Shown: positions 60,667 to 61,737 of the stretch, one piece after another
How positions within the stretch are numbered: the first letter of the stretch is position 1
How the letters are laid out: every line of letters starts with the position of its first letter
Assembly (NCBI GenBank): GCA_031288715.1
Contig: JAITQW010000001.1
Coordinates: 7,186-71,185, forward strand
Reading direction: 5' to 3'
Length of the DNA: 64,000 nucleotides
Origin: Lactobacillales bacterium
GTDB taxonomy: Bacteria > Bacillota > Bacilli > Lactobacillales > Streptococcaceae
Translations under genes and position numbers: made by a program
The notes under the pieces: generated by a model
What the model was told of the DNA's origin: nothing
The model's database searches: none
What the model saw: only the letters and a program-made list of their open reading frames with translations

Positions 60667-61311
60667 ATGAGTAAAATAATTAAACGTGCTCATTATCTAA
60701 AACAATTAGAAATGTGGTTTGAGAAAGATATAATTAAAGTTGTTACCGGCGTAAGACGCTCCGGTAAATCAACTCTTTTAGAGTTATTCATTGAATCTTT
60801 AAAACAAAAAGGTATAATCAATGAACAAATAATTTATTTGCATTTGGATGACGAAAAAAACAGCAATCTTTTAAATCACAAGAATTTGCATAGATTCATT
60901 TCTTCAAAAATATTAAAAAACAAACGAGTGTATCTCTTTATTGACGAAGTGCAAAACTGCTCTGATTACGAAAAAGCAATATCAAGCATCTATTTAAATA
61001 AGCTAGTTGACATTTATATAACCGGTTCAAATGCCCACATGCTTTCCGGTGAGCTTGCAACAAAGTTAACAGGAAGATACATTGAAATCAGTATATTGCC
61101 GCTTTCTTTTATGGAGTATAGCGAAATAGTAAGCAATAGCGACAAACATTCTTTATTTAATGATTATATAAATTACGGAGCTTTCCCTTTTGCTGCTACA
61201 TTGGTAGAAAACGCTTTGATGCATACGCAATATTTGCAAGGTGTTTACACAACTGTTATGGTCAAAGATATTTTAACGCGAAAAGGAATTTTGAGTTACA
61301 ATTTGCCCTAA
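60667..61311 (+). pseudogene. AAA ATPase (AAA_14/DUF4143 family), C-terminal half missing
   Basis: Walker A GVRRSGKSTLL, Walker B YLFIDEVQ. Only 214 aa (from the ATG at 60667), whereas as I recall this family is about 400 aa. The coding sequence runs straight into compositionally foreign DNA at about 61300. Confidence 0.7.
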
Positions 61312-61697
61312 AGCATCTGAAGTGCCTACACCGCATTACCTGGCTCCCGAGCTTCATAGTCAGGAGGGGTCAAGCAGCCGACGCCTACCCAGCAATGGAT
61401 GTTTACTCATTTGGTTTGATGGCCTACGAGATTTTGACAGGGAAGCCAGTTTTTCCGACAACTATGTCAGCAGCTACGACCATGCGAAGAGCTATGAGTG
61501 CTAAGGCATCAGACCGTCCTGTAATTCCCGATAATTGCCCACCAGTACTACGGGAATTAATTACACGATCTTGGAATGCAACCGCGAGCAAACGCCCTAC
61601 AGTTGAAGCGCTTGTGAAGTCTGTTAGGGATAATAGCGGGCAATTTCAGCAATTTCCAGGTGTTAAGCTTGAATTCCTAGACCAGGGACCAAAATGA
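61295..61697 (+). pseudogene. Remnant of a eukaryote-type (TKL-like) protein kinase: C-lobe only, frameshifted
   Basis: One frame reads EVPTPHYLAPELHSQEG (subdomain VIII APE). The next frame reads AYPAMDVYSFGLMAYEILTGKPVFP (subdomain IX DxxSxG) ... SKRPTVEAL (subdomain XI). No N-lobe or catalytic loop is present. The first 100 nt are about half G+C by hand count, against about one-third in the flanks. Confidence 0.7.
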
Positions 61698-61737
61698 TAA
61701 GTTCATAAAAAAATAAGTATTATGATTTGCGTCACTA

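Follow-up and report, generated by a model that had tools for sequence, protein, structure and literature searches.

Gene order around the kinase-homologous segment

The window, by which we mean the whole 64-kb stretch of DNA that was analysed, comes from the genome of an uncultured Lactobacillales bacterium assembled from a metagenome. The deposited records of its TrpRS, AspRS and ankyrin proteins bear the name 'MAG: Lactobacillales bacterium', and the TrpRS shares 75-80% identity with sequences of Streptococcaceae and Lactobacillales. Close to its 3' end, all on the plus strand, lie the 5' half of an ATPase gene, a short kinase-homologous segment and an ankyrin-repeat gene.

The ATPase gene (60658-61290, plus strand) encodes a complete AAA_14 domain (PF13173; Pfam E=8.4e-35) and, by BLASTP, matches with 47% identity residues 1-203 of WP_013483447.1, a 393-residue AAA_14/DUF4143-type ATPase from Ruminococcus albus. 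The alignment ends at query residue 211 (nucleotide 61290); the R. albus homologue goes on with NDIELLESIV..., which has no counterpart in the window. Since the AAA_14 domain is present but the C-terminal ~190 residues of full-length homologues are missing, the ORF is a member of the AAA_14/DUF4143 type truncated at residue 211 of about 393, and it continues for six unrelated codons to a stop at 61309-61311. Directly upstream of its start, outside the kinase remnant and given here as context, a repeat search identified a composite palindrome (60567-60643, no strand assigned) with 30-nt arms, 97% complementary, and four AATACTTGT/ACAAGTATT half-sites, which could be an operator, and a promoter-like TTGTAA-18-TATAAT lies at 60619-60648. 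Between the end of the BLASTP match and the start of the tblastn match to kinases there is a junction of 19 nt (61291-61309, plus strand; TTGAGTTACAATTTGCCCT; GC 0.37) assignable to neither parent gene, the ATPase stop overlapping the first kinase-homologous codon. The fusion to a truncated ATPase gene proposed in the first-pass annotation holds in that the kinase segment abuts the AAA_14 gene cut at residue 211, but it is a fusion of DNA and not of reading frames, the ATPase frame being closed at 61309-61311.

Past the stop codon of the kinase segment, in an AT-rich spacer (GC 0.28), repeat search and RNA folding revealed a hairpin (61738-61780, plus strand) with a 20-bp stem and a 3-nt loop, whose centroid structure has -25.8 kcal/mol (z = -4.5; equalled in stability by none of 200 shuffles). 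It is terminator-like but its U tract is weak, and a consensus scan made no terminator call. The ankyrin-repeat gene starts at 61817 (plus strand) and runs past the window end at 64000; its product (749 aa, full length taken from contig L001; Pfam Ank_2 E=1e-50) is MDR3156356.1 in NCBI, 'ankyrin repeat domain-containing protein [Lactobacillales bacterium]'. By inspection, its N-terminus is signal-peptide-like (basic, then hydrophobic), and the GC3 of the gene, 0.20, makes it compositionally native. The C-terminal domain has no Pfam family at E<=10 and weakly matches three N4BP2 Smr structures (E 0.38-1.3), with ITGRG.H...GV.R.K.AV aligned; the earlier name ankyrin-Smr holds for its many ankyrin repeats, and the domain is only weakly Smr-like, which does not confirm the Smr label.

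A cluster of eukaryotic reads stitched into a bacterial contig, as a chimera or a contaminant, would fit with the abrupt composition change at both edges, and the source metagenome also contains eukaryote-like contigs of the same kinase family. Such a chimera needs, however, two joins about 390 bp apart inside a 72-kb contig, both flanks of which are Lactobacillales-like; moreover, a second assembler (Logan, run SRR14710895) gave a sequence 100% identical over window positions 58283-64000, both junctions covered, and another Lactobacillales contig, present in both JGI and NCBI, carries an intact member of the family. We consider a chimera highly improbable. The sequence AAGCTTGAATTC at 61665 (HindIII+EcoRI) was considered as a vector trace and rejected, since its bases encode the K-L-E-F of the family-conserved C-tail motif.

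Searches by tblastn with the ATPase, kinase and ankyrin proteins gave no matches at 80 Streptococcaceae/Lactobacillales TrpRS loci and, since MetRS is not adjacent to TrpRS in those loci, their gene order gives no ancestral state. A close relative (L166, Logan DRR534530; 87% nucleotide identity) loses synteny at 59253, before TrpRS, and is therefore uninformative for the kinase locus. Among the relatives recovered, no ancestral or sister genome with an intact ATPase-kinase-ankyrin order was found. We suspect that the samples come from the gut of termites or other arthropods, from the names 'Cd354' and 'Nc350' and from the DRR run.

A kinase C-lobe in two reading frames

The kinase-homologous segment (61310-61697) is read in two frames, with a 1-nt shift between them, and encodes the C-lobe, subdomains VIII-XI, of a eukaryote-type protein kinase. 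Judged by sequence comparison, this homology is far past chance: the profile search that had been named as a check returned Pfam Pkinase (PF00069; E=3.5e-12, 46.7 bits, cut-off 31.7) and PK_Tyr_Ser-Thr (PF07714; E=6.6e-12, 45.7 bits, cut-off 23.1), 223 PDB kinase sequences matched at E<=1e-3, and a HMMER library search of 1.84 billion representative proteins gave 2537 matches. YLAPE, DVYSFG and KRPT, which mark the C-lobe of eukaryotic protein kinases, are readable in the translation, and both peptides quoted in the first-pass annotation are present exactly. The Pkinase match covers profile positions 156-259 of 263; the N-lobe (Gly-rich loop and VAIK lysine), HRD..N and DFG are absent from the remnant, and tblastn with six full-length family proteins detected no further kinase-family piece in the 64-kb window, as expected from the earlier description of a C-lobe-only remnant.

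The earlier reading of a eukaryote-type kinase agrees with the PDB matches, in which a plant MLKL-like kinase (6ka4, E=8.9e-11) and Dictyostelium Roco4 (4f0f, E=5e-9) score better than the bacterial (mycobacterial) PknA (E=1.8e-6). Lactobacillales normally encode one PASTA Ser/Thr kinase, and the presence of PknA among the matches would be compatible with a remnant of a native Hanks-type kinase (StkP/PknB-like) instead of a foreign gene. Nevertheless, eukaryotic kinases score four to five orders of magnitude better, no PASTA or transmembrane segment lies downstream, the GC of the fragment is the highest in the window, and the fragment has the motif chain and C-tail of the discoidin-kinase family described below, within which its C-lobe groups in a neighbour-joining (NJ) tree. 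A native origin has, in our view, next to no probability.

The proposed TKL-like assignment seems plausible from these alignments, the best PDB matches of the fragment being of TKL type, but TKL is not clearly preferred: PLK1 is interleaved with the MLKL-like kinase, Roco4 and TAK1 among the top matches and, with the full-length family kinase domain as query, MAP2K7 (STE) is level with TAK1, DLK, CTR1 and RIPK1 (TKL). These TKL/STE kinases are the best PDB matches of both the fragment (E 9e-11 to 1e-6) and the full family kinase domain (E 2e-17 to 1e-14), and share with them C-lobe signatures of the types DV[YF]SFG, EILTG..P and CW....RP. Identity is only ~25-35% with no group clearly preferred, and the family differs from them by its own C-tail, an N-terminal discoidin-like domain and a degenerate catalytic core.

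The composition of the segment sets it apart from its surroundings. The GC jump near 61300, counted by hand at about 54 per 100 nt in the first-pass annotation, is 0.55 for 61300-61399, and GC reaches 0.481 over 61310-61700, against 0.311 in the ATPase ORF, 0.357 downstream and 0.347 in the whole window. The maximum among 6361 sliding 390-nt windows is at 61300, and only two of them reach 0.481, so that the foreign composition claimed earlier is borne out. Third codon positions follow the same trend (GC3 0.38-0.45, against 0.19-0.35 for native genes), and GC drops to 0.28 immediately past the remnant stop codon.

Frame A (61310-61369, plus strand; KASEVPTPHYLAPELHSQEG) covers subdomain VIII, where the activation segment ends and the APE motif lies, as observed in the translation, in family alignments A1 and A2, where it aligns with RASQVGGPSYMAPE[IV]YDDE, and by tblastn (61310-61381). 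Frame B (61371-61697, plus strand; QAADAYPAMDVYSFG...FLDQGPK*, stop at 61695-61697) comprises subdomains IX-XI, with the motifs DVYSFG, ..SDRPVIP.. and ..RSWN..KRPT.., followed by the family-specific C-tail FQQFPGVKLEF, as identified by Pfam, the HMMER library search, alignment to family C-termini and the ORF list; it is open for 108 codons, while only 0.3% of segment shuffles stay open. The tblastn matches of frame A and frame B share 61353-61381, and the frameshift therefore lies within that interval, in agreement with the 61360-61375 estimated before. The GGGG homopolymer at 61366-61369 (plus strand) is likely, from the alignment, to be the site of the frame-shifting 1-nt insertion: taking out one G restores ..LHSQEGQAADAYPAMDVYSFG.., and the spacing from APE to DVxSFG is then family-like. 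The segment had been called decayed and is indeed truncated, with 128 codons against about 840-1070 in family genes, and frameshifted, but there is otherwise little decay, as in-frame stops are absent and no family-invariant residue has been lost.

Neither a start codon nor a ribosome-binding site for the remnant was found, and no Rfam family overlaps the region. A 100-aa ORF (61395-61697, beginning MDVYSFG) lies within frame B and is named serine/threonine protein kinase by gene callers (JGI name). It could be considered that this ORF, or a 60-aa GTG ORF, is expressed and that the C-lobe piece took on a new role, such as that of a decoy or an interaction module; the 100-aa ORF is uninterrupted, has all residues that are invariant in the family and was called by JGI and Logan, and probably also by PGAP, as two accession numbers lie between TrpRS (MDR3156353) and the ankyrin protein (MDR3156356). 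However, no Shine-Dalgarno-like sequence is present within 15 nt of either start, the APE segment is split off by the frameshift, and the ORF begins in the middle of subdomain IX, a kinase piece in which the helices that pack against the missing lobe parts would be exposed. In addition, no comparably short homologue in a bacterial context was observed among the library matches examined. We regard a functional small protein as very unlikely, and the remnant, having no start codon, ribosome-binding site, nucleotide-binding lobe or catalytic loop, presumably does nothing as a kinase. The annotation of the 100-aa ORF as a serine/threonine protein kinase is misleading.

A family of discoidin-like and kinase-like proteins

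By its alignments, the fragment belongs to a family composed of an N-terminal coiled coil, a discoidin/CBM32-like beta-sandwich, a proline-rich linker and a C-terminal kinase-like domain (P0014, P0017, P0023, P0024, P0060 and the intact bacterial member P0086). The predicted beta-domain (pLDDT 77.6) matches CBM32, discoidin, muskelin and APC10 folds in fold comparison; a sequence-profile search of this domain against the PDB gave no match. Most members have HRE in place of HRD and no DFG and, lacking the catalytic Asp and DFG, are probably pseudokinases.

Single-domain family members match the fragment at up to E=1e-22, and the best of them, which are the nearest relatives of the fragment, share 48-59% identity with it across the stretches that the library search matched; without exception, their sources are JGI metagenomes (3300042605, 3300042606, 3300042618 and 3300042636). 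They share the motif chain SYMAPE..DPKTDVFSFGLI.YE..VFP..MSAA.IMRRAMS..SDRPVIP..LRELI.RSW..KRPT..F.LFP.V.V.F, which is also present in the fragment, together with the F.xFPxVxVxF tail and the same end point. The fragment keeps all 17 invariant columns of alignment A1 and all 12 of A2 (identity 36-51%), and over its whole length is 36-59% identical to the family, depending on member and comparison. Its homology reaches the natural C-terminus of the family, the coding sequence ending six residues past the family tail, and the stop codon at 61695-61697 is probably the native stop of the parent kinase gene. Unlike the family genes, the window copy has nothing 5' of the APE segment, the N-terminal coiled coil and galactose-binding-like beta-sandwich being absent from the window by tblastn.

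An intact relative, which the first-pass annotation had suggested looking for, was found in another Lactobacillales MAG: P0086 (NCBI MDR1473282.1, 'protein kinase [Lactobacillales bacterium]', 1074 aa), on a contig present in both JGI and NCBI. Its gene is flanked by L32/L33 ribosomal protein genes (rpmG) and by cysS and sortase genes, has a GC of 0.474 against 0.23-0.38 in the flanks, and is preceded by the Shine-Dalgarno-like aagggggaaa; its 5' end is AT-richer and encodes a hydrophobic N-terminus that is signal-peptide-like by inspection (basic, then hydrophobic). The sequence of this N-terminus suggests export towards a eukaryotic partner. The eukaryote-like contig L167, carrying a family member, comes from the same sample.

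Most family members sit on eukaryote-like metagenome contigs, which have no Shine-Dalgarno site, sparse ORFs, tails of type-I membrane proteins and, in two contigs, a TCAYW initiator-like motif that precedes the ATG by 5-10 nt; on these grounds, rather than on a marker gene, these donor-type contigs are probably from protists. The fragment is 36% (alignment A2) or 43% (library search) identical to P0086, and 45-51% (A2) to the copies on eukaryote-like contigs. The NJ tree of the 128-aa C-lobe places it within the family, at a poorly resolved position and not as sister to P0086 and, given this and the 36-43% identity, the two bacterial copies may have been acquired independently. The fragment is not specially near any sampled member, the closest being about 50-59% identical, and at the nucleotide level its matches to family genes are marginal, so no donor can be named.

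Word-index protein searches with the repaired fragment, P0086 and P0017 retrieved the queries themselves or generic kinases and nothing else, no relative of the fragment was found among the contigs of 185,579 species representatives, and a single degenerate pattern from alignment A2, run against metagenome contigs, yielded generic kinases of ~30% identity among the matches listed.

Origin of the remnant and comparison with eukaryote-like effectors

The truncation relative to homologues, the disrupted frame and the missing translation signals are those of a pseudogene, and we think it probable that 61310-61697 is the non-functional remnant of a horizontally acquired eukaryote-type kinase-like gene in a Lactobacillales chromosome. 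From the sequence relationships, the most likely reading is that these bacteria took the gene family from a microbial eukaryote, a direction that we infer. Both parent genes are truncated, in the same orientation, at a junction of at most 19 nt. A full-length kinase gene would once have stood downstream of the AAA_14 gene and upstream of the ankyrin gene, co-oriented with both; one deletion of a few kilobases would have taken away the 3' half of the ATPase gene together with the spacer and the 5' ~2.7 kb of the kinase gene, and a 1-nt insertion in the G run would then have added the frameshift. As no sister genome with the intact arrangement was found, this scenario is drawn from the geometry of the locus; it is the most likely history, to which we give slightly over half of the probability allotted to the pseudogene. 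The fall of GC to 0.28 after the stop, with the homology to the family C-terminus, indicates that the 3' edge is a gene boundary and not a random break, and the unameliorated G+C and the intact conserved residues indicate that the loss is recent.

Alternatively, a short piece of protist DNA or cDNA holding only the kinase 3' end may have integrated by illegitimate recombination into the AAA_14 gene and replaced its 3' half, the kinase gene never having been full-length in this genome. The foreign-composition DNA spans only ~390 bp, no other family remnant lies in the 64 kb, the 19-nt junction is unassignable, and the fragment is nearer to the copies on eukaryote-like contigs (45-51% in A2; 48-59% in the library search) than to P0086 (36%; 43%). 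Nevertheless, the foreign segment ends at its own stop, beyond which GC is 0.28 and no 3' flank of a donor is seen; its orientation is that of both neighbours, and the hairpin and spacer follow it as they would a resident bacterial gene; at the junction, about 570 bp of the ATPase gene were lost, which a simple insertion would leave unexplained; and a full-length, bacterially adapted copy is known in another Lactobacillales MAG. Such direct capture appears unlikely to us, though the least so of the alternatives to a pseudogene of a once resident gene.

The fragment itself is a dead gene piece and its value is that of a marker: with P0086, it points to an uncultured Lactobacillales lineage that takes up, and also loses, genes of a previously undescribed eukaryotic family (discoidin-like and kinase-like). 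Transfer of signalling domains from eukaryotes to bacteria is well known in Gram-negative intracellular bacteria and, to our knowledge, few cases are documented in Gram-positives of the lactic-acid type. Export of the intact proteins, if it occurs, would indicate an unrecognised and intimate association of a bacterium with a protist, or with an animal. We tentatively hypothesize, while considering it rather doubtful, that this Lactobacillales lineage, living in intimate contact with a gut protist (perhaps a parabasalid, in view of the TCAYW motif just 5' of the ATG in two donor-type genes), repeatedly captured discoidin-pseudokinase genes of its host, added a Shine-Dalgarno sequence and a Sec signal, and exports the products together with ankyrin proteins, the window fragment being a relic of turnover.

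Eukaryote-like Ser/Thr kinase effectors are found in protist-associated bacteria, such as LegK1-4/7 of Legionella and similar genes of amoeba symbionts. Unlike those, the window copy is a truncated, frameshifted pseudogene, and most family members have HRE and no DFG and are probably pseudokinases; there is no sequence relationship with LegK proteins beyond the kinase fold, and the host is a Gram-positive Lactobacillales and not a Gram-negative equipped for type IV secretion. As in LegK-type effectors, a eukaryote-type kinase domain of foreign composition stands beside an ankyrin-repeat protein, and the intact relative P0086 carries what seems to be a secretion-type N-terminus. Should the effector reading be true, these genes would be to a Gram-positive what the eukaryote-like effector repertoires are to Legionella and the amoeba symbionts.

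Composition, reading frames and boundaries of the kinase remnant

In a 100-nt sliding profile, G+C content rises from 0.33-0.34 at 61100-61299 to 0.55 at 61300-61399, remains at 0.43-0.51 as far as 61699 and thereafter drops to 0.28-0.32. Over 61310-61700 it is 0.481, against 0.311 in the ATPase ORF, 0.357 in the downstream 2.3 kb and 0.347 in the whole window; the highest value among 6361 sliding windows of 390 nt lies at 61300, and two of the 6361 reach 0.481. The kinase C-lobe piece (61310-61697, + strand) is encoded in two frames, frame A (61310-61369), with the APE segment, and frame B (61371-61697), with DVYSFG and the stop codon; the tblastn matches of the two frames overlap at 61353-61381. 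A GGGG run (61366-61369) lies in the middle of this overlap, and deletion of one G from it gives LHSQEGQAADAYPAMDVYSFG, in which APE and DVxSFG are spaced much as in the family. After this repair, the 128-aa peptide scores over the curated cut-offs of two Pfam families, PK_Tyr_Ser-Thr (E=6.6e-12) and Pkinase (E=3.5e-12), in the latter case aligning to profile positions 156-259 of 263, and it also hits 223 kinase sequences in the PDB. Frame B by itself (108 aa) matches 2537 proteins at E<=1e-3 out of 1.84 billion representatives, and its 108 codons are equally open in 0.3% of shuffles of its bases. The first-pass annotation is borne out on the G+C jump near 61300, on the frameshift and, by profile search, on kinase identity, and its two peptides were recovered letter for letter, in two frames.

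The AAA_14 ATPase ORF upstream (60658-61311, + strand) holds a complete AAA_14 domain (E=8.4e-35). Its alignment with a 393-aa Ruminococcus albus homologue (BLASTP, 47% identity) ends at residue 211 (nt 61290), and the homologue extends 190 residues further, with no counterpart in the window ORF. Since ATPase homology ends at 61290 and kinase homology, by tblastn with six full-length relatives, begins at 61310, the junction comprises 19 nt (61291-61309). The ATPase frame runs through six unrelated codons into a stop (61309-61311) overlapping the first kinase codon; the truncated ATPase gene initially described is confirmed, with homology ending at nt 61290, and the fusion, as judged from the reading frames, exists in DNA and not in proteins. 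The absence of N-lobe, HRD and DFG regions holds more widely than first stated, as the same tblastn detected no remnants of them anywhere in the 64-kb window. With N-lobe and catalytic loop missing, a working kinase is excluded. The candidate starts of the remnant, GTG 61322 and ATG 61395, have no Shine-Dalgarno-like sequence near them, and co-option of the remnant as a mini-protein is unlikely. No Rfam family was found in the remnant region.

At its 3' end, the remnant has its own stop codon (61695-61697), six residues past the tail motif with which the relatives likewise terminate. The sequence AAGCTTGAATTC (61665-61676), which occurs once in the window, is a HindIII site directly followed by an EcoRI site; a polylinker or vector origin was ruled out, because these bases encode K-L-E-F, aligned to the conserved V.V.F C-tail of the family, and the resemblance is a coincidence. 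Separately, a composite palindrome (60567-60643) with four AATACTTGT/ACAAGTATT half-sites and 30-nt arms, 97% complementary, overlaps a promoter-like site immediately 5' of the truncated ATPase gene. It may serve as an operator or mark one end of a small mobile element.

The kinase-like family and its carriers

The best single-domain relatives (P0014, P0017, P0023, P0024, P0026, P0029 and P0060, among others) are 48-59% identical to the fragment. By their shared motifs, a long chain of them plus the tail F.xFPxVxVxF, the relatives are one distinct family, and all invariant columns are kept in the window fragment. At full length, members measure 841-1074 aa and are composed of an N-terminal helical, coiled-coil region, then a conserved domain of ~130 aa, then a C-terminal kinase-like domain. 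The ~130-aa domain has no match among Pfam and PDB sequence profiles; its AlphaFold model (pLDDT 77.6, pTM 0.76) resembles the beta-sandwiches of CBM32, F5/8-type-C discoidin, muskelin and APC10 (E down to 6e-6, TM about 0.6), and it is predicted, by fold only, to be a CBM32/discoidin-like beta-sandwich. Sequence inspection showed that, in most members, HRD is replaced by HRE and DFG by CGY, SGS or YGF; HRD is retained in a few (P0024, P0057 and P0099), as is the Asp at the DFG position (P0023, P0078, P0080 and P0099). Given these replacements, many members are probably pseudokinases, and the family is probably a mixture of pseudokinases and kinases. Among curated families and named proteins, its only match is a MAG protein with a generic name. 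The best PDB matches of the fragment are TKL-like (plant MLKL-like kinase, 8.9e-11; Roco4, 5e-9; TAK1), with PLK1 in between, and bacterial PknA is far weaker (1.8e-6); for the full family kinase domain, MAP2K7 ties with TAK1, DLK, CTR1 and RIPK1.

All close relatives come from four JGI metagenomes (3300042605, 3300042606, 3300042618 and 3300042636). Contigs L083, L084, L165 and L167, which bear relatives, have a GC content of 0.42-0.53 and few ORFs beyond the kinase gene; their flanking ORFs have no Pfam matches, and no Shine-Dalgarno site was found on them. L083 and L084 each carry a type-I membrane protein fragment. Both contigs with a credible start codon have a TCAYW motif 5-10 nt ahead of the ATG, which resembles the parabasalid initiator element, a hint only. 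These four contigs are provisionally read as eukaryotic, probably protist. On L084, the family gene is in pieces (243-1034, 4320-4682 and 4695-5888), with other ORFs between the N-terminal piece and the remainder; the split may reflect rearrangement or decay of this copy in the putative donor genome, or else faulty assembly.

One full-length member, P0086, occurs intact in another Lactobacillales MAG (L085:5417-8641, on JGI 3300042636 contig Ga0466703_144826; 1074 aa), named 'protein kinase [Lactobacillales bacterium]' at NCBI (MDR1473282.1). On this 16-kb contig its neighbours are rpmF/rpmG on one side and cysS, sortase genes and a lactococcin-like gene on the other. Its G+C is 0.474 versus 0.23-0.38 in the flanking genes, a compositional anomaly in common with the window fragment. 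An SD-like aagggggaaa lies 8 nt before the ATG, and the AT-richer 5' end encodes MEFSKNKGLIFGTVAVAAIIGFHATSVEG, a signal-peptide-like N-terminus. The gene being intact and having bacterial expression signals, the family has reached Lactobacillales genomes in complete form on at least one occasion. Among proteins of Gram-positive bacteria, P0086 is a candidate for a secreted pseudokinase of eukaryote-like type; the sample it comes from also yields a eukaryote-like contig bearing another member of the family.

Chromosomal setting and origin of the remnant

The window is an ordinary segment of a low-GC Firmicute chromosome (GC3 0.19-0.35), with genes for EF-Tu, the mraZ/rsmH/ftsL/pbp/mraY cluster, HisRS, AspRS, nadABC and TrpRS. 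The TrpRS shares 80% identity with its counterpart in a Lactobacillales MAG and 75-78% with the TrpRS of many Streptococcus species. NCBI lists window proteins MDR3156335, MDR3156352, MDR3156353 and MDR3156356 under 'MAG: Lactobacillales bacterium', on a 72,376-bp contig. An assembly chimera is unlikely, since it needs two junctions, an intact family member (P0086) is independently present in another Lactobacillales MAG, and two assemblers gave the same sequence: a 6.8-kb contig from run SRR14710895, assembled independently by Logan, shows 100% identity to window 58283-64000, a stretch that takes in both junctions. The ATPase, kinase and ankyrin genes are absent from all of 80 related TrpRS loci. 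L166, a contig of a related genome (Logan DRR534530), is 87% identical in nucleotides over window 49919-59253; synteny holds to the TIGR01440 gene and breaks at window 59253 (L166:10553), just upstream of the region with foreign genes, and in place of TrpRS L166 has an AT-rich gene for a 438-aa polytopic membrane protein.

Elsewhere in the window, a perfect 24-nt tandem duplication (58256-58312, 2.4 copies), repeating GARGGFVV in the product of a membrane-protein ORF (58015-58653), has the look of recent slippage that kept the frame. A lysine riboswitch (1979-2148, + strand; Rfam RF00168, 89.8 bits, E=2.8e-22) precedes an ORF (2244-3875) with a signal-peptide-like segment at its start.

The spacer that separates the remnant from the ankyrin gene is AT-rich (GC 0.28) and holds a hairpin (61738-61780) with a perfect 20-bp stem and a 3-nt loop (z = -4.5 against shuffles), which is not a textbook terminator because the U tract behind it is weak. 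The ankyrin-repeat protein (61817-64000 in the window; full length, 749 aa, at L001:3535-5784 on a Logan contig) begins with a signal-peptide-like segment and contains no fewer than 10 ankyrin repeats as well as an acidic linker. Its C-terminal domain resembles N4BP2 Smr domains only weakly (E 0.4-1.3), and the 'Smr' label of the first-pass annotation is not confirmed. The ankyrin gene is compositionally native, given a GC3 of 0.20. To our knowledge, ankyrin-repeat proteins with an export signal are unusual among Lactobacillales.

We regard the fragment as the probable pseudogene remnant of an acquired eukaryote-type kinase-like gene of the P0086 kind, and one deletion within a row of ATPase, kinase and ankyrin genes would give the observed arrangement. 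Such a deletion fits with the ATPase and kinase coding sequences, in the same orientation, both being cut at a single junction of at most 19 nt, with the foreign composition stopping exactly at the native stop codon of the remnant, followed by the hairpin and AT-rich spacer, and with the next gene, for the ankyrin protein, also encoding a eukaryote-like protein with a signal-peptide-like start. The high G+C, the lack of stop codons and the intact conserved residues indicate recent inactivation. Direct capture of a 390-bp piece, instead of deletion from a full gene, is improbable, though no ancestral arrangement was recovered; P0086 is also no nearer to the fragment than are the eukaryote-like copies.

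The data are compatible with a protist-associated Lactobacillales lineage that exports a repertoire of effectors, a reading that rests on inference and that we put forward tentatively. The event itself is of a familiar kind, in which eukaryote-like signalling genes are gained, then lost, by host-associated bacteria, and the window copy is dead; less ordinary is the recipient, a Gram-positive member of the Lactobacillales.
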